Positions 3,338 through 20,271 of a DNA stretch of 60,069 nucleotides are shown piece by piece. How positions within the stretch are numbered: the stretch's first letter is position 1; each line of letters starts with the position of its first letter. Below the pieces are notes generated by a model, which saw only the letters and a list, made by a program, of their open reading frames with translations, was not told where the DNA came from and searched no databases. The position numbers were made by a program, and so were the translations under genes. Source of the DNA: an uncultured Methanosarcinales archaeon (GTDB lineage Archaea; Nanobdellota; Nanobdellia; Woesearchaeales; GW2011-AR9); contig CAZGQD010000007.1 of the NCBI GenBank assembly GCA_964527395.1, positions 8,654-68,722 of the forward strand, read 5' to 3'.

Positions 3338-3889
3338 ATGAGAGAAAAAACTGTTAATTACAGTGAACTTAAAGGAGTTGGATTAGTTGAGAGGATGCTT
3401 TTTGATAATTATATGGAAATGTTCGATATCACTGTTGAAAAGTCATTACCTTATGTTTCTTTAGCAGCGCCAGTTATGTTTGGTTTCATGTATTCTAGTG
3501 GCGATGTAGGAGGAATTTTTGAAGAATTTTCAACAAAAAATCTAGCAAATGCATTTATTTTCAGTTCGACATCAATAATTGGTTTGAAAGATCCATTAGA
3601 GGAATACATTTACAATGGTCTTTCTGTTTTTTCTAGAAAATATGGGTACGAATTTGATGAATTAATGAGGACTGTATCTCCTGGATACCGTGATGAAGTA
3701 CAATGGCAAAAATTTTCTCCAAGATCAAAGTTTTTTTTATTAACAAAGCTACATAAGGGCAAAGCATTAGGATTAGTTGCTTTTATAGCAGCATTCTACA
3801 TAGGAACACAGTTACACATGAATATTAATAGAAGTAATTCTAGTTATCTTGGGATTGAAACTGTTGTAGAAAGTGATTTTTTTGAATAG
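3338..3889 (+). CDS. Hypothetical protein with possible C-terminal membrane helix
   Basis: 183-aa ATG ORF; hydrophobic ALGLVAFIAAFYIG segment. Confidence 0.6.
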   Translation: MREKTVNYSELKGVGLVERMLFDNYMEMFDITVEKSLPYVSLAAPVMFGFMYSSGDVGGIFEEFSTKNLANAFIFSSTSIIGLKDPLEEYIYNGLSVFSRKYGYEFDELMRTVSPGYRDEVQWQKFSPRSKFFLLTKLHKGKALGLVAFIAAFYIGTQLHMNINRSNSSYLGIETVVESDFFE

Positions 3890-4647: not shown

Positions 4648-4748
4648 AGGGTTTTTTTTAGAATTTGAGCATTTTTTTTACTAGTTTATTGTTGTTATTT
4701 CTGATTTGTGACAAATTATTTATAAATAAATGGCTTTTTGAGCTAGTT

Positions 4749-5729
4749 ATGACCCTCACCACCATACTAGATGGAGTTATGCCTGTTCAGAGTGCAGCTA
4801 TTCCAAAAAATAGAATGATTTCTAAATCTGAGCGTTTGTTGGGAATTTTAAGAGGTGTTGTAAATGGTGATTTGAGGGAAAGAACACTATATTCTTTAGA
4901 TTTTACAGCAATTCCATCTTGGAAAGTCCATTTTTTATTACTCAATGCAGAAGGGTTTGATGAACACTTTGTTTCTAATGAAGCAAGAGAAGCTTTTTTT
5001 GATGAATACCATCCTGGACCAACAGCAGATAGACAGATGATTACTTCTAATTTAGGAGTTGACTTGCTTGATGGAAGATCAAATAATATTGGAAATGTTC
5101 TTACACAAGTTGAAGCTATTGCAAATGAATCTAATCGTGATGAAGACGTAATGCAAAGAGTTTCTGAGATTGTAAATGATTATTTTTCTATTGGAATCAT
5201 GGGATATTTGATGTTAAGAGAAGAAGAATGGGAAGGGCTAGGTAGAGATGATTCTGCCCTTGATTATGCCGTAAGAGCTGTAGAATACAATTCTTTGTTA
5301 GGGATGGCTGAAGGCTTCTTTAATGATTGTAAAGAATTAGGAGTTGAATTTGCACCTTTAACTAGAACAGATTGGAGATATTTGCAAGAAAGGTTTGAAA
5401 GTACTTCAATAAAAGATGTTCGAGAACTTGGATCAAAAGCAGTTGATCAAGCAATTGAAACTTATTTATCTTTGAATTGTATAAGAATGAAAAAAGGTTT
5501 TAAAGTAGATTATGAGGCTTTTGTTGGAGACATAGTGCTTGTTGAGAAATTTGCTTCAGATTTAGGACTTTCTATGATGCCTAAATTAGAATGGATAAAA
5601 AAAGATGTTTCATTGAAGATGAGAAGAGAAATTGGTAGTTCAGCTTATATGCAATTATATCAGCAAAAGAAAAGAGAGTTAGAGTTGCCAAAATTAGTTG
5701 CTGGCGTTAATTATCAGGAAGTTGCATGA
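4749..5729 (+). CDS. Hypothetical alpha-helical protein
   Basis: Long ORF (track start 4665 is TTG; ATG 4749 follows a TTTATAAA box). No motif recognised. Confidence 0.6.
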   Translation: MTLTTILDGVMPVQSAAIPKNRMISKSERLLGILRGVVNGDLRERTLYSLDFTAIPSWKVHFLLLNAEGFDEHFVSNEAREAFFDEYHPGPTADRQMITSNLGVDLLDGRSNNIGNVLTQVEAIANESNRDEDVMQRVSEIVNDYFSIGIMGYLMLREEEWEGLGRDDSALDYAVRAVEYNSLLGMAEGFFNDCKELGVEFAPLTRTDWRYLQERFESTSIKDVRELGSKAVDQAIETYLSLNCIRMKKGFKVDYEAFVGDIVLVEKFASDLGLSMMPKLEWIKKDVSLKMRREIGSSAYMQLYQQKKRELELPKLVAGVNYQEVA

Positions 5730-5785
5730 TTTTTGTTGAATTTTCATAAACAACATTTCAAATTGATTCTATAAATTAGTACTTG

Positions 5786-7417
5786 TTAAAATTCTAATGG
5801 GAATTGCATACATAATCTTTTTACTTGAGCTGCAATCTGCTGGATCTCTGGATCTAACCTTGTTGCTTCGTTGAATTCTTTGAACTTCAGATCTTTATAT
5901 TTTTCACTGATGTTCATTACTTGGTTGATCCATTGAGCAATACTTTGCATTTCTTGTTCTTTCATGCCCCTTGTAGTAATCCAAGGAGTTCCTAGTCTAA
6001 GGCCGCTTGGGTTCATAGGACTCCTTGTTTCTTGTGGAATAGTATTATAATTTGAAACAATGCCAGCATGGTCAAGAGCTCTTGCGAATTTTCTTCCTAT
6101 AACTGCTTTGTTTGTAAGGTCAATTAAGATTAAATGTTTGTCTGTTCCGCCAGAGACAATGTTAAAATTGAACTTTTGTAGTTCGTTGGCAAGGAATTGA
6201 GCGTTTTTTACTGTTTGAAATTGATCTTGTTTGAATTTATCTGTCATTGCTTCTTTTAAACCAGCTGCAATACCAGCAATACAATGATTGAATGGGCCAC
6301 CTAACAAGCCTGGAAGTACTGCTTTATTGATCTTCTTGATTAATTCTTCTTTGGCAAAGATTAGTGCTCCTCTCCCAGATCTTAATGTCTTATGAGTTGT
6401 TAGAGTTACAACGTCAGCAATACCTACTGGGCTTGGATTTGCTCCTGCACTGATTAACCCTGCTTCATGTGCGATGTCTGCTAGGTAGTAAGCTCCTACT
6501 TTGTTCGCGATTTGTCTCATTCTCTTGTAATTAATGTTTCTAGGATAAGCTGTACCGCCAGTAATGATTAGTTTTGGCTTTTGTAGAGTGGCAATTCTTT
6601 CAATTTCATCATAATCGAATTGTTTTGTTTCAGGATTGGTTTTGTATGAGACACTATTGAAAATCTTTGAGGAGATGTTAACTTTGTTTGATCCACCGTA
6701 GTAAACTGACTTTTTTGGATCTGCTGGTTTTTTAGGAGTGTAAGACCAACCGTGTGAAAGATGTCCTCCGTCTGGAAGATACATACCCATAATATAATCT
6801 CCTATTTGTAATAAGGCTAAGTACACTGCTAAGTTTGCTGTTGAGCCCGATAATGCTTGAACGTTTACAGACCAGTCTTCTGGTAGATTGAAAGCTTGTT
6901 TTGCTCTATTTATTGCTAATTGTTCAATTTGATCAATGTATTTGTTACCCTCATAGTATCTTCTTTTTACATTACCTTCAGAATATTTGTGAGCTAAGAT
7001 TGATCCTGTTGCTTGTCTTACAGCTGTTGAGAAGAAGTTTTCACTTGGGATCATAGAAAGTTTGTTTTGTTGTCTTTGTTTTTCTTGCTGGATAAGGTTG
7101 TATAGTTCAGGATCTTGAGTTTCTAGATTGTTTTTATTTGTGTTTTGGATACTTGAATTTGTTTGGATATTTATTGATTCTTGTTGTTTTTGATTTACTT
7201 GATTAAATTCGCTACTTTGGATTGCTGTGGCAGTTTGAGCCATTTGACTTACTACTTGTTCTTGATTAATTTGTGTTGGTTGAGAAACTTGTGCTTGCAT
7301 ATGTATCTGATTAGTTTGAAATTGTTGTGCTTGATTAGAATGTGGATTATGTTCTTGATTTAGCTGAGTAGCTGCATCTTTTTGAGCTTGTGCACTTTTG
7401 ATTGCTTCTTGGAACAT
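5786..7417 (-). CDS. glyA: Serine hydroxymethyltransferase with Gln-rich N-terminal extension
   Basis: IPSEN, KYSEG...RYYEG, VQALSGSTAN, GGHLSHG, ADIAH, TTHKTLR (PLP Lys), SGLRLGTP. Confidence 0.95.
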   Translation of the reverse strand: MFQEAIKSAQAQKDAATQLNQEHNPHSNQAQQFQTNQIHMQAQVSQPTQINQEQVVSQMAQTATAIQSSEFNQVNQKQQESINIQTNSSIQNTNKNNLETQDPELYNLIQQEKQRQQNKLSMIPSENFFSTAVRQATGSILAHKYSEGNVKRRYYEGNKYIDQIEQLAINRAKQAFNLPEDWSVNVQALSGSTANLAVYLALLQIGDYIMGMYLPDGGHLSHGWSYTPKKPADPKKSVYYGGSNKVNISSKIFNSVSYKTNPETKQFDYDEIERIATLQKPKLIITGGTAYPRNINYKRMRQIANKVGAYYLADIAHEAGLISAGANPSPVGIADVVTLTTHKTLRSGRGALIFAKEELIKKINKAVLPGLLGGPFNHCIAGIAAGLKEAMTDKFKQDQFQTVKNAQFLANELQKFNFNIVSGGTDKHLILIDLTNKAVIGRKFARALDHAGIVSNYNTIPQETRSPMNPSGLRLGTPWITTRGMKEQEMQSIAQWINQVMNISEKYKDLKFKEFNEATRLDPEIQQIAAQVKRLCMQFPLEF

Positions 7418-7441
7418 AATTTGCTATTTGCTCCTTTTTGT

Positions 7442-7864
7442 TTATAAGGATTGTTGGTGCTTAGAGGTTGCTTTTTGCTTGTTTAATTCTAAAAGATCCC
7501 ATTTATTACCATATAAGTCTTTGAAAACTGCAACAATACCATAATCTTCTATTCTTGGCTGCTCTAAGAAATTTATTTTGTTATTTTTTAATGTTTGATA
7601 ATCCTTTTGGAAATTGTTTGTTTGTAAAAATAAGAACACTCTGCCTCCAGTTTGATTGCCTATGAATTGTTTTTGTTCTTCATTTGCTGCTTTTGCTAAT
7701 AAAAGGCTTGTTGAATACTTATTTGGTGAGACTAAAACCCAACGTTTGCGTTCAGAGATCTTTGTGTCTTCAATTAGAGTGAAGCCAAGCTTTTTTGTGT
7801 AATAATCTATTGCTTCATCATAGTCTCTAACTAAAACTGTTACGTAGGCTATAGATTTTGACAT
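7442..7864 (-). CDS. VOC/glyoxalase family protein
   Basis: VTVLVRDYDEAIDYYTKKLGF, RWVLV, YGIVAVFKDLYGNKWDL. Confidence 0.9.
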   Translation of the reverse strand: MSKSIAYVTVLVRDYDEAIDYYTKKLGFTLIEDTKISERKRWVLVSPNKYSTSLLLAKAANEEQKQFIGNQTGGRVFLFLQTNNFQKDYQTLKNNKINFLEQPRIEDYGIVAVFKDLYGNKWDLLELNKQKATSKHQQSL

Positions 7865-7929
7865 TTGTATGAAATTTTGTTGATAGGATTTATAAAGCTG
7901 TCTTTATTATTATTATTTTTTCATTAGAT

Positions 7930-8628
7930 TTATCTTTTGCCTTCTTCAATAGAACTTTTTAGTAAACTTATTGGGACTTTATAATTATCATCTCTATGTT
8001 CTGGGTCGAATGTGGCTGAACCTGCTACAAAAAGGTTTGCACCTCCCCTAGAAGCTTGATATGCTGAAGACTGACTAGATTCACCATGTTTATAATGAAT
8101 ACCACCATCTACTTCTATATCTAAATCAGGAAATCTGTCTCTTAGATAACGTATATCTTCCAAAACTCCAGGAATGAATTTTTGGTTACCAAAACCTGGA
8201 TTTACTGTCATAAGTAATACATAATCAGCAACTTCTTCAAAGATATAATCTGCTATTGCTCTTGGGTTTGTGCCTGGATTTAATGCAACACCAGCATTAA
8301 CACCTTTTTTTTTAATTCCATTTAAAATGCCATCCAAATGCGAAGTTGTTTCACAATGTACGGAAAGATAATCAAGTCCAGTATCACAATAAGCACCAAC
8401 CCACTTATCTGGATTACTAATCATAAGATGGCCATCTAATGGGAGATCCGTAGCCTTTCTTATTTGTCTAATAAGGGGCAATCCGAAAGTTAAATTATCT
8501 ACAAAGTGACCGTCCATTACGTCCAAGTGAATCCCATCTGCGCCGCCTTGTTCAAGTCTTTCAATCTCAGAACGTAGATCTAAAAAATTTGCAGATAATA
8601 AAGATGGAAATAATTTTCTTTCAAGCAT
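7930..8628 (-). CDS. rpe: Ribulose-phosphate 3-epimerase (copy 1)
   Basis: PSLLSANF, HLDVMDGHFVDNLTFG, DGHLMI, LMTVNPGFG, IEVDGGI. Confidence 0.95.
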   Translation of the reverse strand: MLERKLFPSLLSANFLDLRSEIERLEQGGADGIHLDVMDGHFVDNLTFGLPLIRQIRKATDLPLDGHLMISNPDKWVGAYCDTGLDYLSVHCETTSHLDGILNGIKKKGVNAGVALNPGTNPRAIADYIFEEVADYVLLMTVNPGFGNQKFIPGVLEDIRYLRDRFPDLDIEVDGGIHYKHGESSQSSAYQASRGGANLFVAGSATFDPEHRDDNYKVPISLLKSSIEEGKR

Positions 8629-8650
8629 TTTTATACCTCTTGTGTTGTTG

Positions 8651-9748
8651 TTACCTGACTCTTCTTTGGGAGACTAGCTTCTTTAGGTCGCTTCCGCTGC
8701 CTTGTTGCCAATGACTCGGTCTGTTACCGTCACCTTCTAAATTGTCCCAAAAGTATTCATGGTTGTAGTAATACCAAACCTGTCTTACAGGGAACTGGTG
8801 GTATTTGAAATAAGTATAAGGAATGTCGCTTGCTCTTGTAACTGTGTCTGTTGATTCATCGTAGTAAGCACCTGCAGTTGCATCAATCACAAACCATTGG
8901 TCGTCATCTTCATCATAATATTCTACCCAAGCGTGGCCACCAACTGTACCATCAAAATCAACTAGGCCTAAAGTTACTCTTACGTTTTCAGAATCTATGC
9001 CTGAAGCAATCATTAAGGATGCCAAAGTGTTTGCTTGTTCACTACAGTCACTTGCATAATCACCAGGGCTTGGGTTAGTACTCATACTCGGAGTCTCTGT
9101 GAGGAACTCTTCAGGGTAGAACCAATACTCTACTTGGCCATTTAGAACTTCTTCTGAGACCCAAATCCAAGTTAGGGCTTCATCATAGATTGATTGTAAA
9201 TCGTTTGCTGTTTGTTCTTCTAAGTCTTGTACAGCATCGGTGTCAGGTTGAACATAAGATTGGTATGATGAAAGGATAGTAATATCACCAGGATCTTGCT
9301 GCTGTTCTTCTGCACGTTTGTTTTTTAAGTATTCTTTTAGATCTTCAATATCACTTACATCTGCGTTATCTAAGGATTTTTGGAACTTTCGGTCTCTGAT
9401 CTTTTGAGTTGTTTCGTCTTCTAGAGATTTTTCAATGTTTTCAAGTAATGTTTCTAGTTGGTTTTCATTTACAAACCTAAGCATACATTCGTTATCTCTT
9501 ACGCTTTTTATTTCTGGTACTGGTATTGTTATTTGATACACATCAAACTTTTCTGCGTCTACCTTTAGAACTGGCTCATAGTTACTTAAGTCCAATGCAT
9601 CACAAGAGTCTTGGACTTGTACATAGATTGTTTGTTCACCCTTAGTAGCTTTTTGGCTAACTGGATCTGGGCTGCATGCAGTAATCAATAGAATGATTAG
9701 TGTAAATGATAGAATTGTGAATAGTGGTTTTAGACGTTTTATGGCCAT
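8651..9748 (-). CDS. Lipoprotein with transglutaminase-like (papain-fold) domain
   Basis: LITAC lipobox; catalytic-type Cys (SDCSEQA), His (GHAWVE) and Asp (IDAT). Confidence 0.8.
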   Translation of the reverse strand: MAIKRLKPLFTILSFTLIILLITACSPDPVSQKATKGEQTIYVQVQDSCDALDLSNYEPVLKVDAEKFDVYQITIPVPEIKSVRDNECMLRFVNENQLETLLENIEKSLEDETTQKIRDRKFQKSLDNADVSDIEDLKEYLKNKRAEEQQQDPGDITILSSYQSYVQPDTDAVQDLEEQTANDLQSIYDEALTWIWVSEEVLNGQVEYWFYPEEFLTETPSMSTNPSPGDYASDCSEQANTLASLMIASGIDSENVRVTLGLVDFDGTVGGHAWVEYYDEDDDQWFVIDATAGAYYDESTDTVTRASDIPYTYFKYHQFPVRQVWYYYNHEYFWDNLEGDGNRPSHWQQGSGSDLKKLVSQRRVR

Positions 9749-9875
9749 GTTTCTTTGTTTGTTGGTTTTTGCTTAAAAAACTTTTGTACTTTGAGTTATT
9801 TTGTGTTTGTTTTGTGATAGTTATTTTAGAGTTGCTAAATCATTTTAACTGAAAATTGAGCAAAAATATATTTAT

Positions 9876-10436
9876 ATGGGTGAAAAAGTGCAAAAAACTA
9901 GAATTTCTGCGGAACAGATACAATTTGAAAGGCTTAAGGTTGACCACGATGTTTCTAATTTTGAGTCTTATGAGCAAGAATTAGTTGATTTTCTGCAAGA
10001 AGATGCTTTAGATAACCAAAAAAAGCAAATTTCGGTGACCTACTTGTGTTTTTTGAGAACAGATGAATTGATTGGTTATGTAACTTTATCAGATGATAGA
10101 ATTAAGTTAGAAGGAGGGCTTAGACAAAGATTTTTGGGAAAAGGAATCCCTTATAGAGCATTGCCTGCTTTGAAAATTGGTCGTTTATGTGTTGATAATA
10201 AGTTTATTAGAAGAGGAGTTGGGACTTTGATCATGGCCTTTGCAACAAATGTGGCCGAAAACATATTTTCAGACTATTCAGGCTGTAGGTTTGTTGTTTT
10301 GGATGCAAAAAGAAATGAAGAAAATGATGTTGTTAGGTTTTACCAGAGAATTGGGTTCAAAATTATTAGAGAAAAGAAAAAAGGCAATAGTCCAATGTAT
10401 TTAGACTTAGTTAATAACCTTAAATTTAGTATTTAG
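9876..10436 (+). CDS. GNAT acetyltransferase, TacT/AtaT-like toxin type (copy 1)
   Basis: LPALKIGRLCVD...RRGVG acetyl-CoA motif, GCRFVVLDAK, FYQRIGF. Confidence 0.85.
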   Translation: MGEKVQKTRISAEQIQFERLKVDHDVSNFESYEQELVDFLQEDALDNQKKQISVTYLCFLRTDELIGYVTLSDDRIKLEGGLRQRFLGKGIPYRALPALKIGRLCVDNKFIRRGVGTLIMAFATNVAENIFSDYSGCRFVVLDAKRNEENDVVRFYQRIGFKIIREKKKGNSPMYLDLVNNLKFSI

Positions 10437-10559
10437 GGCTTTTTTAATGAAAGCAATACGTCTTGGATCAGGATTAGTCTCCTCTTTTCTCATTTTTTCT
10501 ATGAATTTGTATGCTTCTTTGCCCCTTAAGGTAGGAGTTGCTTCAATTGGTTTTGCCAT
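10407..10559 (-). CDS. 50-aa putative antitoxin/partner peptide (copy 1), absent from the ORF track
   Basis: Manual translation MAKPIEATPTLRGKEAYKFIEKMRKEETNPDPRRIAFIKKALNTKFKVIN. 36/50 identical to copy 2, with a conserved upstream promoter-like sequence. Confidence 0.8.
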   Translation of the reverse strand: MAKPIEATPTLRGKEAYKFIEKMRKEETNPDPRRIAFIKKALNTKFKVIN

Positions 10560-10610
10560 AGTTTGTTTATAGGAAGTGTTTTTTAATAAAAGTTTCTATT
10601 GAGTAACTTT

Positions 10611-10658
10611 CTCTTGAAGATAGTAAGTTCAAACTCACCTTTGTCTTGCGTTGATTCT
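10611..10658 (-). pseudogene. Duplicated 3' fragment of folA (ESTQDKGEFELTIFK)
   Basis: 30-bp block 10629-10658 identical to 11509-11538 inside folA; the adjacent differences are synonymous. Confidence 0.9.
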
Positions 10659-10711
10659 CTGCTTTTATTGCTTTAAAACACACAATTGAGTATCTAAATT
10701 CTTTTAATGAA

Positions 10712-11281
10712 GTGACTTACAAGACTATTTTGATGGTCGAAGAAAGAACAAAAGTGAAGATCACTGTTGATCAAATACAAATTGAAGTGATCAATGAAGA
10801 TTATGATGTAACTAGGTTTAGGTCTTATGAAAATGATTTAGCTAAGTTCTTAGTTGAAGATGCACTTGATAATCAAAAACAGTTCCTATCTTTGACATTT
10901 TTGTGGTTTTTTGAAGGCAGATTGGTGTCTTATATTACCATATTAAATGATAAAATCAATCTTAAAGGAGATTTGAAAGATTTCTTTAAGCAAAAAGGCA
11001 TCCATTATGGCTCTCTTCCAGCTTTGAAAATTGGTCGTTTGTGTGTAGATGACAGATTTGTTAGAAGAGGACTTGGTAAATTAATGATTCAGTCAGCCAT
11101 TTCTATTGCTAATAAGCTAAATACTAGTTGGTCTGGGTGTAGATTCATTACGTTAGATGCAAAAAGAAACGATAATCCTAGTAAAGATCCACTCAATTTC
11201 TATAAAAAACAAGGATTTAAGGTTTTGAAAGAGAAGAATGGAAGCACTACACCAATGTTTCTTGACTTGAAACTTATTTAG
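10712..11281 (+). CDS. GNAT acetyltransferase, TacT/AtaT-like toxin type (copy 2; ATG start may be 10733)
   Basis: LPALKIGRLCVDDRFVRRGLG, GCRFITLDAK, FYKKQGF. Paralog of 9876..10436. Confidence 0.85.
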   Translation: MTYKTILMVEERTKVKITVDQIQIEVINEDYDVTRFRSYENDLAKFLVEDALDNQKQFLSLTFLWFFEGRLVSYITILNDKINLKGDLKDFFKQKGIHYGSLPALKIGRLCVDDRFVRRGLGKLMIQSAISIANKLNTSWSGCRFITLDAKRNDNPSKDPLNFYKKQGFKVLKEKNGSTTPMFLDLKLI

Positions 11282-11426
11282 GAAAATTGAACTTAATGTT
11301 TAAAGCTTCTCTGATAAATGCAATACGTCTTGGATCAGGGTTAGTTTCTTCTTTAATCATGTTTTCTATGAAACGTTTAGCATCTTCTCCTTCTAATGTA
11401 GGTGTTGCTTCAATTGGTTTTGCCAT
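11274..11426 (-). CDS. 50-aa putative antitoxin/partner peptide (copy 2), absent from the ORF track
   Basis: Manual translation MAKPIEATPTLEGEDAKRFIENMIKEETNPDPRRIAFIREALNIKFNFPK. Confidence 0.8.
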   Translation of the reverse strand: MAKPIEATPTLEGEDAKRFIENMIKEETNPDPRRIAFIREALNIKFNFPK

Positions 11427-11462
11427 AATTTGTTTATATGGTGTGTTTTTTAATAAATATTT

Positions 11463-12011
11463 CTATTGATTTGTTATTATTGTGTCTTTCTTTTTGAAAA
11501 TAGTCAGCTCAAACTCACCTTTGTCTTGCGTTGATTCTTCTTTCCAAGCGTTCCAATTAATTTCTGGGAACTTAGTGTTACCTTCATATTCATGCTTTAT
11601 AAAGGAGATGTGCATTGTGTCTGCGTATTGTTCTAAAAGTTTGTATATTTGAGCTCCACCAATGATGAAGATGTCTTTTTCGTGGGTTTTGGCTAGTTGG
11701 ATGGCTTCTTCTGGTGAGTTTGCTATCTCTAATTTCGAGCATAGCTCTCTTGACTTGGCTCTTTCATCGCCAAGTATTGCTTCATTTGTGTCTGCTTGAT
11801 TCCAGCTTCTGGAGAGAATGATATTTACTCTGTTTGGGAGAGGTCTGAACTTTTTTGGGATTGATTCGTAGGTTTTTCTACCCATGATAACTACACTATT
11901 GTTTGTTAAAAGTTTGAAGTTCTTTAAGTCTGCTGGGATGTTCCAAGGAAGTTTGTTGTCTTTACCAATGATTTTGTGGGTTTTAGTCATAGCAGCTATA
12001 ATTGAGATCAT
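11463..12011 (-). CDS. folA: Dihydrofolate reductase with internal insertion
   Basis: IIAAM...IIGKDNKLPW..PADL..FK, VIMGRKTYESI, RPLPNRVNIILSR, IFIIGGAQIY, GNTKFP. Confidence 0.95.
   Translation of the reverse strand: MISIIAAMTKTHKIIGKDNKLPWNIPADLKNFKLLTNNSVVIMGRKTYESIPKKFRPLPNRVNIILSRSWNQADTNEAILGDERAKSRELCSKLEIANSPEEAIQLAKTHEKDIFIIGGAQIYKLLEQYADTMHISFIKHEYEGNTKFPEINWNAWKEESTQDKGEFELTIFKKKDTIITNQ
11731..11801. repeat. Palindromic element copy lying in frame inside folA
   Basis: TTCGAGCATAGCTCTCT..ACTTGGC-loop-GCCAAGTAT matches the intergenic element at 53102-53143; TCGAGCA pairs with TGCTTGA at 11793-11799. Confidence 0.7.
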
Positions 12012-12079
12012 GTGTTTGAGGTTGTTTGGGTTGTTTATAAAGGTGCTTGTGGAAAAGAGGGAAATTAAAAAGATAGAAT

Positions 12080-12835
12080 TTAGTAATCTGCAAATGGATT
12101 TGGCAATGAATTAACTCTTTCTTTTTCCCTCCATCTTTGGTAAGCATTTCTTAATAAGCTAATCCCTTCATCACCTTTAAAGATTAATTCAAAATCAATA
12201 GGAAATGTTGAATTAGGGTCCCTATCTCTGAAAACATAATTGTATGTCCCTAACTCAACGTACTCCTTTTCAAAGGCAGTTTTCAATTCATCTTTGGTTA
12301 AAACGAATCTAACTAATCTCTTATAATTAGGATCATTCACAAATTCATCAGTAGTATTAAAATAACTTGTATGAACAGAATCATGCCAAAAAAGATCATG
12401 ACTTGAACCTAAATCTGAACTGCTTTCACCCCATTTTATTACTTCTTCTTCAGACAATACTCTCGTTAAAATTATTTCATCTTTAAAGTTTTCTAATAAG
12501 TACATATTTATTGGTTTTGGAGTTAAGTTTTCAATTGTTCCATTGATTTTATAGATAGAATATTGAGATTTTTTATTAGAAGTGTGAGTTCCCAAAGGTA
12601 TAAGATGGCCGTTATACTCAAGGAAACTTCTATTTCTTCTTAAAGATCTTCCAAATCTCTTTACAGTAATATCGACATGGTGGGTTCTTCTACCATGCTG
12701 AAGATCCAATAGTCTATTTCTACTGTCCCTAATTGTATCAGTTACCCAATATCTTACTATTTCTTGTGATTCAGAATTAGATACTCCAAATAAATGCCAA
12801 TTGTTATTTATTATGTCAAAAAGACTTAAACCCAT
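12080..12835 (-). CDS. Hypothetical protein between thyA and folA
   Basis: 251-aa ATG ORF. No family motif recognised. Confidence 0.6.
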   Translation of the reverse strand: MGLSLFDIINNNWHLFGVSNSESQEIVRYWVTDTIRDSRNRLLDLQHGRRTHHVDITVKRFGRSLRRNRSFLEYNGHLIPLGTHTSNKKSQYSIYKINGTIENLTPKPINMYLLENFKDEIILTRVLSEEEVIKWGESSSDLGSSHDLFWHDSVHTSYFNTTDEFVNDPNYKRLVRFVLTKDELKTAFEKEYVELGTYNYVFRDRDPNSTFPIDFELIFKGDEGISLLRNAYQRWREKERVNSLPNPFADY

Positions 12836-12888
12836 TTAACCCGTAAAAAGAGACAGTTTTTAAAAATATATCTTCAATTTGCTTTAAA

Positions 12889-13788
12889 TCAAACAGAAAT
12901 TGGAGCTTTAATAGGTGGATGAGGGTCGTAGTTCTCTACTTTGATGTCTTCGAAAGTAATGTCAAACAGATTTGTCTTGTCTTTGTTGATTGTTAGATTT
13001 GGAAGTGGTCTTGGCTGTCTTTGCAGCTGTTCTCTTGTTTGGTCTAAATGGTTCAAATATAGATGCACATCGCCGCCAGTCCAAACAAAAGTGCCTGGTT
13101 CTAAGCCGCAGTGTCTTGCAACCATAATAGTAAGAAGTGCGTAAGAAGCAATATTGAAAGGTACGCCTAAGAAGACATCGCAACTTCTTTGGTATAATTG
13201 GCAAGATAGTTTTTTGTTTGTTACATTGAATTGGAATAGGCAATGGCAAGGTGGTAAGAGCATGTTTTGGATCTGAGTTGGGTTCCAAGCACAAATAATC
13301 ATTCTTCTACTATGTGGGCTTTGTTTGATTAGTTCCAAAGTGTTTTTTAATTGGTCAACACCGTTAAAATCACGCCACTGTTTACCGTAAACAGGACCAA
13401 CATCGCCCCATTTCTTTGCGAACTCTTCGTTTGTCTTGATTTGTTCTAGATACTCTTTCATTCTTGCTTTCCAAGCTTCACTGTATTTAGGATAGAGTTC
13501 TTCCAAATTATTTTGTTTTAAGAAATTTTGATAAGGCCATTCGTTCCAAATGTTTACTTTGTTTTCCACTAAGTATTTGATGTTGGTGTCGCCCTTTATA
13601 AACCACAACAGTTCGTGTGTTATTGCTCTCATGTAAGTCTTTTTGGTAGTTAGAAGTGGAAAACCTTTGCTAAGATCAAAGCGCATCTGGTAACCAAAAG
13701 TGCCTAAAGTGCCAGTACCCGTTCTGTCTTCTTTTTTCTCGCCGTTTTCTAGGACGTGTTTAAGTAAATCTAAGTATTGTTGAACCAT
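12889..13788 (-). CDS. thyA: Thymidylate synthase, bacterial type
   Basis: [64 protein letters not shown]. Confidence 0.97.
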
Positions 13789-15216: not shown

Positions 15217-15267
15217 TTTAGTTTTGAAAAGATCGATTAATTTGAGGCGTATTTGTGTTTCTTCTTG

Positions 15268-15283
15268 GAGTTCGCATAATGTT
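15268..15283 (+). repeat. GAGTTCGCATAATGTT motif copy 4
   Basis: Exact match, 51 nt after the folC stop, at the left edge of the lipoprotein/PP2C islet. Confidence 0.85.
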
Positions 15284-15384
15284 TGTGGTTGTGTCTGTTT
15301 CATATATGATTAACCTACAGATAGTAGTGTTTTTCGTGATTTTAACTGGTTATATTTATAAAAAAGAGCCATATTTTGAGCTTA

Positions 15385-16312: not shown

Positions 16313-17074
16313 ATGACAAATAGATTAGGATTAGTTGGATTATTAGGAGCAGGGTTAAGTAGTGGGTGTGTTCCGGAATATCGTGCAGTTCCACAAATGG
16401 GATCTGTTATGGTTACAGATGAAACTATTACTGATTGTGCTTCATTATTTTTGCTAGATGATGCTGGACTTTGTGACACTTTCATTGATGATAGTACTGC
16501 AAAAGGACTGTGTCTTAATAACTATGCTGCAGCTCAAGATGAAGCATTAGGATTATTAGAATTGGCAGATACTGCTGAAGGTAGCTTAGTAGGGAGTTTA
16601 GAAGGTGAAGGTAGTTTTTCAAGTTCTCTTGGATATTCGGCTGATCAAGAGGCATTAGTTAGTTTAGATCAAGCAGAAACTGTTGATACAATTGAAAGGT
16701 TTTTTACTGTTTTTCAGAATTCTTCTGATAGTCCGTTCTTTTCTTGTAGTTACATTAAAGCAGCAGGAGGAAATGCATGTGAAGATGCAGTGTATTTAGT
16801 CTCTGCATTTGCTGGGAATGAATTTGATTCAGAATTACCATTTGGTGAACAAGGAAATGTTAGGATTGATCTAACAAGACCTTTAAATTATGTTGTTGAA
16901 GAAGGATGTTATTCTGTTTTTGATGAAGCTATGCTAAATGTGAGCCCTTCTGTTGGAGAAGCTTTTATTGGGGCTACTGAAGGGAACTTAGACAATGCTT
17001 ATCTCTTAGATGCTGAAGCAAGAACAATTTCTGCTGTTGATTTTATCTTTGCAGCAGATGTGACTTATGATTAG
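16313..17074 (+). CDS. Acidic Cys-rich lipoprotein, paralog 2
   Basis: MTNRLGLVGLLGAGLSSGC signal and the same conserved motifs; GTGAGG ribosome site. Confidence 0.8.
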   Translation: MTNRLGLVGLLGAGLSSGCVPEYRAVPQMGSVMVTDETITDCASLFLLDDAGLCDTFIDDSTAKGLCLNNYAAAQDEALGLLELADTAEGSLVGSLEGEGSFSSSLGYSADQEALVSLDQAETVDTIERFFTVFQNSSDSPFFSCSYIKAAGGNACEDAVYLVSAFAGNEFDSELPFGEQGNVRIDLTRPLNYVVEEGCYSVFDEAMLNVSPSVGEAFIGATEGNLDNAYLLDAEARTISAVDFIFAADVTYD

Positions 17075-17138
17075 AATTGATTTTATTTTTTTATTTAATT
17101 AGCACATTGAAAAAAATTGAAAAAAGTGAGTGAATGAA

Positions 17139-17927
17139 ATGGGAAATAGATTTGGATTAAATGGAGTATTAAGTTTAGGAGTATTAAGCCTTGGAATTGG
17201 TAGTGGCTGTACTCCGCCATCTTGGTATCCTTTCCCTAAAAGTGATGATTACAATTTGAGTGAAGATGTTTATGAAGGTTGTGCTTCATTATATTCACAA
17301 GAAGATATTTCTGATTTATGTGAAGCTTTTTCTTTTGGAGATGAAAATTTGAATGCTTTATGTGTTGAAAATTATGAAAATGTTCAGGAGATTGGTTTAG
17401 AGTCTTTTGAGGGAATTATTGATGAAGTGCATGACTTAGCAGCAGGAGATGTTGAGAATACAGAAAGATTAACTACCACAACAGGATATTCTCTAGAAAG
17501 GGATGCTTTTATTAGCTTAGATGAAGGAGTTTCAGTTGGACTTAAAGAAAAGGCATTTGTTTTAAATGACAATGAATTTTTTGGTGGAACATATTTTGAT
17601 TGTAGATATATTTTGCTTGATGGTGACAATGTTTGTGATAACCCAAAATATTCTAGTTCTGTCCTGTTTAGCCATAACCTTCATGGAGATCAAAGTCTTG
17701 AAGGTTTTTTAAGTGGAAAAATTGAATTTGTTCGTAATATCCAATATGTTGTTGAAGAAGAATGTTTTGATGTTTTTTATGGAGCCGAATTGAATATTAA
17801 GAGAACAGGGATGGAGAGTTTTTCTGGCAATGCAAGTGTAGGTTATGAGAGCCTTTTATATGCAGAAACAGATTTAATAGATGCAGTTGATACAGCAACT
17901 GATGTGATCATGAATTATCAGTATTAA
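17139..17927 (+). CDS. Acidic Cys-rich lipoprotein, paralog 3
   Basis: MGNRFGLNGVLSLGVLSLGIGSGC signal and the same conserved motifs. Confidence 0.8.
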   Translation: MGNRFGLNGVLSLGVLSLGIGSGCTPPSWYPFPKSDDYNLSEDVYEGCASLYSQEDISDLCEAFSFGDENLNALCVENYENVQEIGLESFEGIIDEVHDLAAGDVENTERLTTTTGYSLERDAFISLDEGVSVGLKEKAFVLNDNEFFGGTYFDCRYILLDGDNVCDNPKYSSSVLFSHNLHGDQSLEGFLSGKIEFVRNIQYVVEEECFDVFYGAELNIKRTGMESFSGNASVGYESLLYAETDLIDAVDTATDVIMNYQY

Positions 17928-17957: not shown

Positions 17958-18980
17958 ATGCAAATTTCACCATATTTTTTAAAGGACAGATTAAGTTATG
18001 AATGTTTTAGTAGGTATCAGGTTGGTTCTACATTAGTTGAAATTGCAGCTGGTTCTTTAGTTCATATTGGAAGAGAAGAGATTTTGAATCGTGATTCATT
18101 TTCGTTTGGACCAGTTATGCGTTCTGGAGAAACAAAAGGCGTCATAACAGGTGCTTTTGATGGGATGGGAACTTATTTTGAATCATTTATTGTGGCGCAA
18201 ATGGCTGCTGAGATGCTTGTAGTTTATGCATGCGAGAGAGATCAAGAGTTTGATGCTAATGAATTTATTGAAGATTATTTTGAAGAAACTGTTCCAGATA
18301 GTGTTCATTCTAGAACAATGGTTGAAAGATTGAATATTTTGGCTAGAACTAATGAAGAAATTGGACTTGATGTGCTAGTTAAAGAACATATATCGCCTGT
18401 TTTGCATGCATATCGTGAAATTGTGCAAAAAGAGTGTGGAACTACAGCTGCCTTGCAATTGCATCGTGAAGCTTGCGTGGATTTATATTTTCAAGGAGAT
18501 ACATGTAATATTTGGCGTGAAGGAAGAGAATATTTCTGGGGAGGAGAACATACTGATGCTGCTGAGGTTAAGAGATTATCTGAATATGAGAATAAATTTC
18601 CTTTGGAAAGAAGAGATGAATTAATTGGTGTGAAGAAAAGAAATATTGTTTCATATGGACTTACTTATGTTTATCCTTTTTTAGATCACCTAGAGGTTTT
18701 AAATGTGTCTGAGGCAGATATAGTTATGTCAATGACAGATGGTTTTGAAAGACTGCGTGCAGCTAGAATAAAAGAAGTCATCTCTGAGTTGGATAGAAGA
18801 GAAAGACCATTGAATATTGTTAATTCCATAATTAGGGCTGCAGGACATACTAGAAATACAGACGATAAAACTATTGTTTTGGCTAGGCGTAGTGGTCCTT
18901 TAGTTCCCGAGATTCAAGTAGCTGAAAGTCAGGAAAATAGAGAAGGGTTTTTGTCTAATTTTAGGAATATTTTTAGATGA
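17958..18980 (+). CDS. PP2C/PPM-like phosphatase, paralog 1
   Basis: NRD, AFDGMG, CGTT, FQGD, MTDG, DDKT correspond to the PPM metal-binding motifs. Confidence 0.75.
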   Translation: MQISPYFLKDRLSYECFSRYQVGSTLVEIAAGSLVHIGREEILNRDSFSFGPVMRSGETKGVITGAFDGMGTYFESFIVAQMAAEMLVVYACERDQEFDANEFIEDYFEETVPDSVHSRTMVERLNILARTNEEIGLDVLVKEHISPVLHAYREIVQKECGTTAALQLHREACVDLYFQGDTCNIWREGREYFWGGEHTDAAEVKRLSEYENKFPLERRDELIGVKKRNIVSYGLTYVYPFLDHLEVLNVSEADIVMSMTDGFERLRAARIKEVISELDRRERPLNIVNSIIRAAGHTRNTDDKTIVLARRSGPLVPEIQVAESQENREGFLSNFRNIFR

Positions 18981-19128
18981 AGGATACTGTAAAAAAGGGT
19001 TTTTTGATCATTTTGGTGGTTTTTTAGGTCGATTAATTGTTTGATAGTGATCAATTGATTGTTTCTTTAATTTGCTACACCTATTGTAGTAGATCTTGTT
19101 TATACTAAGTTTTGTTTTAGTTTGTTTT

Positions 19129-20271
19129 ATGCCAATAACAACAACAAACAATGTCGGAAGACGAAATTATGGGCTTTTAGGAAGCTATGAAGTGGGTTTG
19201 ACAACAATTGATATTGCAGCAAGTTCAGCTGTGAACACAAAATATGGCGATGATCTCAATCGCGATGCATTATATTTTGGACCAGTAATACGTTCTGGAG
19301 AAACAGTTGGAGTAATTGGAGGAGTTTTTGATGGGATTGGAGCAGCTGTAGAATCTGCGAGTGCCTCTAGAATGGCAGCCGCTATGCTAGGAGTATACGC
19401 AAGTGAACGTGGTTCAAGTAATGCTATACGTTTTTTGTGTCCATATTTTAAGAAATTTAGTCCGCGTGATGCTCATATTCAAACTATGATGATGAAGGTT
19501 GATGAACTTGGACGTACTACTAATGATGTTTCGCTTGGTGATTTATCAAGAGAATTTATTCGACCAGTGTTGGTTGCATATAAAGCATTGACTGAAGCTA
19601 CAACAGGAAAGAGGAGTAGTTGTGGAACAACTTCGGCATTACAGTTTCATACTGAAAATGACACATCATTATATTTTCAAGGTGATGCTGGGAATATCTG
19701 GCGAAGGAAAGGAGATTACTTGTGGGGAGGTGAACATTCATTAGTTGCACTTCAACAAGGATTATTTCCAAAGCAACAAGAGTTACCTTTAGGTTTAAGA
19801 GACAAATTAATGTTTTTACCAGGCAGAAATAGAATTTTTTCTAGTGCAGGAGGATTTCATCCATATACTGAAAGTCTTGAAGCAGTAACAGTAGCTGAAA
19901 CTGATTTAATTATGTCAATGACAGATGGTTTGGAGAAAATTGGTAGTGGCAATATGAAACGAATGGCAGATGAACTTGGAGATGGAGTGACAGTTAACAA
20001 TTTAGCTGAAAAATTAATGGAAGCTGCAAGATTAAGTGGAAATACAGATGATAAAACTGTTTTAGTTGCACAAAGACGCGTAAGATCTGCTCCTGCTTCA
20101 AAGACGTTGGCAGCAGCATTACGTCCTACTCCAAAATATGTTCATAGTAGAAATGGGTCTGGAGTTTTCACAGGTATGATTGCAAATGCAGGAAGAGTTG
20201 GTGGCCCAAGAGGTGTTAAACCTGTTGGAGTTTCCCGTCCTACAGATTCTGGTGGCTATATCGGAGTTTAG
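19129..20271 (+). CDS. PP2C/PPM-like phosphatase, paralog 2, with low-complexity C-terminal tail
   Basis: NRD, VFDGIG, CGTT, FQGD, MTDG, DDKT; shares FGPVxRSGET and GGEH with paralog 1. Confidence 0.75.
   Translation: MPITTTNNVGRRNYGLLGSYEVGLTTIDIAASSAVNTKYGDDLNRDALYFGPVIRSGETVGVIGGVFDGIGAAVESASASRMAAAMLGVYASERGSSNAIRFLCPYFKKFSPRDAHIQTMMMKVDELGRTTNDVSLGDLSREFIRPVLVAYKALTEATTGKRSSCGTTSALQFHTENDTSLYFQGDAGNIWRRKGDYLWGGEHSLVALQQGLFPKQQELPLGLRDKLMFLPGRNRIFSSAGGFHPYTESLEAVTVAETDLIMSMTDGLEKIGSGNMKRMADELGDGVTVNNLAEKLMEAARLSGNTDDKTVLVAQRRVRSAPASKTLAAALRPTPKYVHSRNGSGVFTGMIANAGRVGGPRGVKPVGVSRPTDSGGYIGV

Follow-up and report, generated by a model that had tools for sequence, protein, structure and literature searches.

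A duplicated 3' end of folA brackets a small-ORF/GNAT module in a Woesearchaeota-like DPANN archaeon

The window analysed here is a stretch of 60,069 nucleotides (nt) from contig CAZGQD010000007.1 of an uncultured archaeon, which by the relatives of its dihydrofolate reductase (DHFR) is a marine, Woesearchaeota-like member of DPANN with a GC content of about 33%. Directly downstream of folA, the DHFR gene, lie two modules, each consisting of a small open reading frame (ORF) and a convergent gene for a GNAT acetyltransferase, and the module nearer to folA is bracketed by two copies of a 30-nt piece of folA itself. The distal module with its displaced folA tail is called unit 1 below, and the proximal one (10659-11538) unit 2. 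Both are compared with L003, a 1.1-kb sequence from a relative whose DHFR is 70% identical.

9876-10436, + strand: GNAT1, 186 aa, a Pfam-supported GNAT; 30-nt 3' overlap with the convergent small1
10407-10559, - strand: small1, the presumed resident small ORF; 92% amino acid identity to the small ORF directly after folA in L003
10583-10628, - strand: rest of the displaced, putatively resident folA tail (LTIFKRKLLNRNFY, then stop); 73% identical to the L003 tail, with an indel that puts the TAG out of frame
10629-10658, - strand: 30-nt core, displaced copy; exact repeat
10659-10732, + strand: region upstream of GNAT2, whose left end (10658/10659) would be the non-homologous joint of the insert
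10733-11281, + strand: GNAT2, 182 aa from ATG (a GTG start at 10712 is possible); Pfam Acetyltransf_1/7; 8-nt 3' overlap with the convergent small2
11274-11426, - strand: small2, a 50-aa antitoxin-like protein from a conserved ORF family, modelled with AlphaFold (AF2)
11427-11462, - strand: 36-nt spacer preceding small2, with a TATA-like box (TTTATTAAAAAA); 83% identical to the unit 1 spacer, 64% to that of L003
11463-11508, - strand: putatively incoming folA tail (…LTIFKKKDTIITNQ, then stop), the present working 3' end of folA; 50% identical, with indels, to the displaced tail and 61% to L003
11509-11538, - strand: 30-nt core, functional copy within folA (codons ESTQDKGEFE), which would be the right-hand joint of the insert
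11463-12011, - strand: folA, intact, encoding DHFR of 182 aa (Pfam DHFR_1, E 3e-45), with homologues in Woesearchaeota and Nanoarchaeota

The repeated folA end

Positions 10629-10658 and 11509-11538 carry the same 30 letters (TCAAACTCACCTTTGTCTTGCGTTGATTCT), 880 nt apart from start to start. On neither side does the match run on past the block (0 nt), which lies within a looser repeat of 45 nt at 93% (10614-10658 and 11494-11538). An exact repeat of this length is expected by chance in 60 kb about 1e-9 times (an arithmetic estimate). A third copy was found neither in the window, on both strands and with up to 5 mismatches, nor in 119 fetched loci (the strain's own contigs left aside), nor in viral contigs. 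In the folA frame the displaced copy reads ESTQDKGEFELTIFK, and both copies translate as ESTQDKGEFELTIF(K). They differ at four codons (GAA/GAG, CTT/CTG, ATC/ATT and AAG/AAA), all of them synonymous and all 3' of the core. On the 5' side of the core, in the sense of folA, the copies agree at 7/22 positions, which is the random level, and homology ends abruptly. An earlier note on this DNA, made from the letters alone, had described the block and its spacing, the four synonymous differences and the sharp 5' end; all were confirmed by the exact repeat search of the window and by the comparison in the folA frame. The all-synonymous pattern is by itself weak evidence, as selection filters changes in the working copy anyway (P ~0.15 under plain duplication, a rough figure). 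The stronger signal is that none of the 9-10 core codons is changed, against 4 of 6 in the adjoining stretch.

Past the residues FK, an indel whose length is not divisible by three leaves the displaced tail shorter than that of L003, and its later stop is read out of frame (KRKLLNRNFY, then stop). This frameshift relative to L003 makes the displaced tail a dead fragment.

The structure recurs across assemblies. A 29.8-kb Logan contig spans both joints without differences, at a depth of 53x in sequencing run X1 and 30x in run X2, and short contigs from runs X3-X6 cross both junctions, so that six runs in all carry it. The JGI (L004) and ENA (L001) assemblies match at 99.8-100%, and three independent assemblies (JGI, ENA and Logan) from two studies thus agree. 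The earlier note had allowed for two strain haplotypes collapsed in assembly; contigs from all six runs cross both joints, and such a collapse, or any other assembly artefact, is barely credible. It would be favoured by a related scaffold (L002, 99.6% identical), which parts from the window at position 10695 and stops 87 nt further on. However, the second half of this end is GC-rich in a genome of 33% GC and the end is probably chimeric, the same structure stands in the JGI, ENA and Logan assemblies, single contigs span both joints at even depth, and the 30-nt repeat is shorter than Logan's 31-letter words. Assembly collapse was rejected on the agreement of the six runs and the three assemblies. 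The divergent end of the scaffold (L002:4457-4543) lies within the promoter region of GNAT2, its final 47 nt are the GC-rich part, and it has no match elsewhere in the window; an alternative junction there is conceivable.

Separate ancestry of the units and arrival of the proximal one

GNAT1 and GNAT2 share 48-49% of their residues with each other, and 57-70% with GNATs of other genomes at different loci. The relatives of GNAT1 at L018, L005, L052 and L015 share 57-63% of its residues, and GNAT2 has many relatives at 60-70% in other genomic contexts. The two appear as sisters in 0/200 bootstrap trees, and in 127/200 GNAT1 falls in with genes of other genomes at different loci. In L003, folA is followed at once by a small1-like ORF, and the transglutaminase-like lipoprotein gene that lies beyond unit 1 in the window comes next. 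L003 has neither a GNAT nor a second unit, and the sequence at 9809-10406 of the window is missing there. Identities by segment are as follows.

30-nt core: unit 1 vs L003 83%; unit 2 vs L003 83%; unit 1 vs unit 2 100%
Distal folA tail: unit 1 vs L003 73%; unit 2 vs L003 61%; unit 1 vs unit 2 50%
36-nt spacer: unit 1 vs L003 75%; unit 2 vs L003 64%; unit 1 vs unit 2 83%
Small ORF, codons 1-40: unit 1 vs L003 87%; unit 2 vs L003 80%; unit 1 vs unit 2 79%
Small ORF, codons 41-51: unit 1 vs L003 85%; unit 2 vs L003 64%; unit 1 vs unit 2 67%

The spacer is closer between the units than between unit 1 and L003, but with 6 versus 9 differences in 36 nt this is not significant. The two cores are mutually identical, yet each differs from L003 at 5/30 positions. 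Among codons for the same residue, 45% differ between the units in the GNAT genes and 34-44% in the small ORFs, besides the fractions given above for the distal tail and the core; at 40% change per codon, a core would stay unchanged with a probability of about 0.006. The identity of the core amid some 40% of changed codons therefore points to a recombination joint at the core. Judged by sequence, unit 1 is the orthologue of the L003 locus, and in both its small ORF and its distal tail unit 2 falls outside that pair. The core thus has one recent origin, where everything 3' of it has two old ones.

Taken together, the GNAT tree, L003 and the comparison of segments and synonymous sites argue that the units did not arise by duplication in place, and a plain decayed duplication was rejected on these three lines. 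Unit 2 (10659-11538) is thus the later insertion, stacked before the resident unit, because the GNATs are never sisters and L003 has a single small ORF. In both respects the earlier note, which had denied a decayed tandem duplication and placed a second cassette ahead of an older one, is borne out, L003 showing the order folA, small ORF, lipoprotein gene with no second unit. The comparison of the region downstream of folA among relatives, which that note had proposed, gave L003 as a case free of the insert, and this is a single, diverged relative.

The reading favoured here, and held to be somewhat probable, is an insertion from the equivalent locus of a diverged relative by one homologous and one non-homologous joint. 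The resident unit would be the distal one (displaced tail, small1 and GNAT1), and the later arrival the proximal one (10659-11508 plus one 30-bp block). The donor would be the folA-small ORF-GNAT locus of the relative, its DNA entering either as a circle that had looped out or in linear form. One joint would be an in-register homologous crossover inside the 30 bp of codons for the last beta-strand of the folA product, and the other would be non-homologous, at 10658/10659; the event would be a Campbell single crossover in the case of a circle, and homology-facilitated illegitimate recombination in the case of a linear fragment. We infer that no dedicated recombinase took part. The outcome would be a folA with a working foreign tail, the old tail decaying 880 bp away, and the geometry of attL and attR. 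If the pair acts as a toxin-antitoxin (TA) module, stacking rather than replacement may be expected, as loss of the resident module would remove the antitoxin and free the toxin, so that only double carriers would survive.

The donor looks like an allelic locus rather than a generic element, because the tail, the 36-nt spacer and the start of the small ORF in the insert have their homologues in the resident locus; with modules elsewhere only the upstream A/T box is shared, and no sequence like a folA tail was found upstream of small ORFs at other loci. Of the proposal that a donor recombined into folA and restored it, there stand the foreign tail, the insertion of a small ORF with its GNAT and the intact folA; the generic mobile donor is unsupported, and an allelic one takes its place.

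Several points weigh against this insertion. No donor locus (folA followed by small2 and GNAT2) was found, and the closest relatives of GNAT2 (66-70% identical), in the four contexts examined, do not adjoin folA. A Campbell crossover would need an identical donor core beside neighbours that diverge by 20-50%, which would require heteroduplex correction, luck, or selection of the core as a recombination site, and the last would favour a site-specific route. The state before insertion is seen in one diverged relative only (L003, 1.1 kb), which itself has no GNAT1, and excision was looked for in assembled contigs, which drop rare forms. The small protein is not a DUF1778 antitoxin, and the roles of toxin and antitoxin are putative. 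As for viruses of this lineage as carriers, viral contigs contain neither the core nor a GNAT of the Woesearchaeota type, but only distant co-directional relatives (L107-L110).

A site-specific cassette would account for the same picture by a 30-bp att core and a recombinase elsewhere in the genome, with an 880-bp circle excising and re-integrating with its replacement tail in the manner of a cis-mobilizable element (CIME). This is an unlikely reading, albeit one with real weight: an identical core, diverged arms and a sharp outer boundary form the classical picture of attL and attR, the core is unchanged though about 40% of the synonymous sites elsewhere in the unit have changed, the same spot was hit by two modules, and other members of the family are bracketed by repeats of 41-45 nt with an exact part of 22-23 nt (L115/L116 and L022). 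However, no recombinase, integrase or transposase family was recognised within the unit or in the 57 window ORFs that the analysis covered (40 scanned against Pfam and 17 with precomputed Pfam matches), in line with what the earlier note had said; 13 of the 57 are without any Pfam match, and 8 further ORFs of at least 120 aa fall outside the scan. Furthermore, the contigs of the six runs hold no alternative joints or forms, no third core lies to the left of unit 1, in the fetched loci or in the viral contigs, the core has no dyad or hairpin, the repeats of the family lie in differing genes and sequences with the exact part in either orientation, and the spacer and small-ORF start of the insert are homologous to the resident locus. 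Of the attL/attR interpretation, then, the geometry stands (30/30 repeats, one inside an intact folA), but not an integrase, a circle junction, an empty site in the same population or a third core; the circle junction and the empty site, whose search had been suggested, are absent from the assembled contigs of the six runs, with the loss of rare forms just mentioned.

Duplication in place could still be upheld if the folA tail, small ORF and GNAT had been duplicated long ago, and the 30-nt block alone re-equalised by a short gene conversion from the working folA. The synonymous divergence is indeed similar in the GNAT, the small ORF and the distal tail (34-67%), as a single date would predict, and the unit 1 spacer is a little more similar to that of unit 2 (83%) than to that of L003 (75%). 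Against this, the GNATs are sisters in none of the 200 trees, with GNAT1 beside loci of other genomes in 127 and the 60-70% relatives of GNAT2 elsewhere, the duplication would predate the split from L003, which has a single unit, and a non-functional tail should not remain recognisable for so long; we consider it improbable. An integron-type array, that is, a cluster of attC sites lacking an integron integrase (CALIN), with the repeats as attC sites, is very improbable. Integrons and CALINs do occur in Archaea, including Nanoarchaeota, with TA pairs and acetyltransferases as common cargo (PMC9668308), and in L022 TA pairs are set apart by repeated spacers, but no intI among the 57 ORFs and no imperfect hairpin like attC were found here: DNA folds of both repeat regions, on both strands, gave z of 0.05-1.24, and 94-180 of 200 shuffles fold equally well. 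Moreover, the repeat is folA coding sequence, and each unit has two convergent genes with putative promoters of their own. A transposon or insertion sequence was rejected, as no inverted repeats pair the unit ends, the direct repeat consists of 30-45 nt from the coding sequence of the target and no transposase was recognised among the 57 ORFs; a tRNA target was likewise rejected, with no tRNA genes in the window.

The small-ORF/GNAT pair and duplicated gene ends at other loci

The pair itself is widespread. The small ORF family has 39 clusters at 65-79% identity in Nanoarchaeota, and the small ORF and a homologous GNAT are adjacent in most of more than 100 fetched loci from archaea and bacteria. 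In Woesearchaeota-type genomes (L005, L012, L015-L018, L052 and L113-L116) the two genes converge and their 3' ends overlap; they are co-directional, with the small ORF directly upstream of the GNAT, in Micrarchaeota, Bacteroidales, Myxococcales, Paenibacillus and other Firmicutes, and four viral contigs. The Woesearchaeota overlaps, always convergent, measure 8-40 nt (window, L005, L015 and L113-L115), which suggests antisense coupling of the pair. The small ORF occurs without a GNAT in L003 and L008-L011, as orphan antitoxins might. Upstream of GNAT2 and GNAT1, homology is limited to about 10685-10711. The TATA-like box before small2 may act as its promoter, and A/T boxes resembling it also precede small ORFs at other loci.

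Against PDB sequences, the top 8 matches of GNAT2 are all AtaT (6AJN, 6GTQ and others) or KacT (5ZGN), which are tRNA-acetylating toxins of type II TA systems, with E of 1.7e-6 to 3e-4 over residues 13-169. The RRGxG acetyl-CoA motif and the FY motif are retained in GNAT1 and GNAT2 alike. The AF2 model of the small protein has an extended N-terminus and then a two-helix hairpin (pLDDT 83). The protein has no match in Pfam, NCBIfam, PADLOC or PDB sequences, and its model none by Foldseek in PDB; from the model, a ribbon-helix-helix dimer is possible. The defence-system models of PADLOC gave no match, and no Rfam family was found in 9000-12500. On present sequence evidence, the pair is a putative TA-like module with a new kind of partner, for which toxin and antitoxin activities are predicted. 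What the earlier note had called a peptide is no incidental passenger but the conserved partner of the GNAT, and was already a native neighbour of folA (L003). In the literature, no paper on GNAT TA pairs in DPANN was found.

To survey the family, 500 nt on each side of every distinct small-GNAT module were searched for direct repeats of at least 60 bits, with random positions in the same loci as controls. Such repeats flank 5/38 module loci and 0/240 control positions (Fisher P ~4e-5, by arithmetic). The cases, with a weaker one of 40 bits, are listed below.

Window: 45 nt, 93% (30 exact), 880 nt apart; duplicated 3' end of folA
L115/L116: 44 nt, 91-93% (23 exact), 896 nt apart; sequence next to hicB, on both sides of a GNAT2-like module
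L022: 41 nt, 93%; array spacer, with a MazEF pair in the same array
L107-L109 (viral contigs): 161 nt, 96%; 3' part of an HD_4 gene
L030: 118 nt, 91.5%; two gene-less tail fragments
L106/L076 (weaker, 40 bits): 24-32 nt, 91-96%; tail of the gene for protein-L-isoaspartate methyltransferase (PCMT)

The duplicated 3' ends come from three different genes, namely folA, the HD_4 gene (L107) and, more weakly, the PCMT gene (L106/L076). With differing targets, and with the exact part at either end of the repeat, the cases are less well explained by one site-specific enzyme than by a general route through homology. A bolder, tentative and rather unlikely extension is that the module is a recombinase-less mobile cassette across archaea, bacteria and phages, which would loop out between duplicated gene ends and re-enter the same gene elsewhere by short homology, always with a replacement tail, addiction forcing it to stack. 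Its instances would be folA here, the HD-domain gene in viral contigs, pcm in rumen Bacteroidales, and the sites beside hicB and in the TA array of other Nanoarchaeota.

Some details of these loci may be added. The repeat at L115:757-800 and 1653-1696 (likewise in L116) holds a small GGAGA…TCTCC stem, and the module lies just downstream of a hicB-like gene. L022:3700-5800, from a Nanoarchaeales metagenome-assembled genome, has small ORF/GNAT and MazF/MazE in a row, with A/C-rich repeated spacers at 3731-3868, 4899-4953 and 5609-5796, and looks like a cassette array without known attC sites. In the IMG/VR contigs the HD_4 duplication (L107:3477-3637 and 4806-4966, also in L108 and L109) flanks a small ORF followed co-directionally by a GNAT; the 89 nt directly after this GNAT (4717-4805) recur at 7163-7251, and a HicB gene adjoins. 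An empty site for this phage-borne case gave no megablast match in the 'phages' database. In rumen Bacteroidales the end of the PCMT gene (…FKFVPMLKEIGND) flanks a small ORF and GNAT in the same order (L106:3885-3916 and 4713-4744; L076:637-660 and 1465-1488).

Distant Woesearchaeota have a tight thyA-folA-glyA operon (L117:2056-4712). In the window (5786-13788), about 4 kb of extra genes part folA from glyA, namely the two modules, the transglutaminase-like lipoprotein gene, rpe and a glyoxalase gene. The region downstream of folA is thus a variable spot, since the distant relatives keep the three genes together. Between thyA and folA the window has a 251-aa ORF (12080-12835). The DHFR itself has 182 aa, versus 153-165 aa in relatives; the surplus lies in an extended C-terminal tail and, internally, in an insertion of about WNQADTNEAILGDERAKSRELCSKLE. 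Elsewhere in the window, an intergenic motif of 26-29 nt (TTCTCAGTTGAGTTCGCATAATGTTT) occurs four times on the + strand (37-65, 1270-1298, 1805-1833 and 15256-15284), and two tandem paralogous gene pairs lie at 16313-17927 and 17958-20271, their members sharing patches of about 76-85% identity; the proteins of the second pair (340 and 391 aa) match no Pfam family.

Significance and comparison with known systems

The movement of chromosomal TA pairs is poorly understood, as is the gain of accessory genes in DPANN, with their tiny genomes and few recognisable mobile-element genes. The folA locus is a clean case, in which both joints can be read to the base and the end of an essential gene has been swapped for a foreign one with its function kept. 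Together, the excess of flanking repeats and the duplicated gene ends lead to a testable hypothesis, that TA modules spread by a general route of tail replacement, and the finding will gain weight if this route proves general.

CIMEs beside integrative and conjugative elements (for example ICESt1 at fda) are integrase-less, att-flanked elements that accrete in tandem at the 3' end of a housekeeping gene. The locus resembles them in its bracketing direct repeats, one of which lies in the 3' end of a core gene, in the replacement gene end, in tandem stacking and in the lack of a recombinase inside. Unlike them, it has a unit of only 0.88 kb, an archaeal host and no known partner integrase or excision; its insert is homologous to the resident neighbour in the spacer and small ORF, and related modules land in other genes. 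Homology-facilitated illegitimate and Campbell-type insertion are general mechanisms, with which the locus shares one homologous, in-register joint and one non-homologous joint, a duplicated anchor and no need for a dedicated enzyme. In contrast to the usual Campbell-type case, the anchor is only 30 nt long and is perfectly identical beside 20-50% divergence. To our knowledge, this mechanism has not been shown in DPANN archaea.

Archaeal integron cassettes and CALINs (PMC9668308) are, like these units, small, promoter-bearing accessory units, often carrying TA pairs or acetyltransferases, and stacked; they differ in that no attC structure and no intI are seen here, and in that the repeat is coding sequence of the target gene. 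A precedent for a TA pair fenced by repeats is found in Microcystis aeruginosa, where a ParDE-like pair lies between two identical 152-bp direct repeats just downstream of MaOC1 (PMC7935541). There too the pair directly follows a gene and is bracketed by direct repeats. However, it belongs to another TA family and is bacterial, its repeats lie outside coding sequence and carry inverted repeats, and there is no tail replacement.

The pair itself is most readily compared with the GNAT/DUF1778 type II TA systems AtaRT, KacAT, TacAT and ItaRT (PMC9177977, PMC7595197). The GNATs are of the same size, with AtaT and KacT as the best solved relatives over nearly the full length and with the RRGxG and FY motifs; the small partner is upstream and co-directional in bacteria and Micrarchaeota, and orphan small genes outlast a lost GNAT (L003 and L008). 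They differ in the partner, a 50-aa protein without DUF1778 or any other Pfam domain, and in the Woesearchaeota arrangement, in which the genes are convergent rather than in an operon; their activity is a prediction. The small protein would thus represent a new partner family for AtaT/KacT-like GNATs, and a convergent overlap is unusual for such pairs. Both gene-end-targeting insertion and GNAT TA pairs are of known kinds, and what is new here is the DPANN host and the partner protein.

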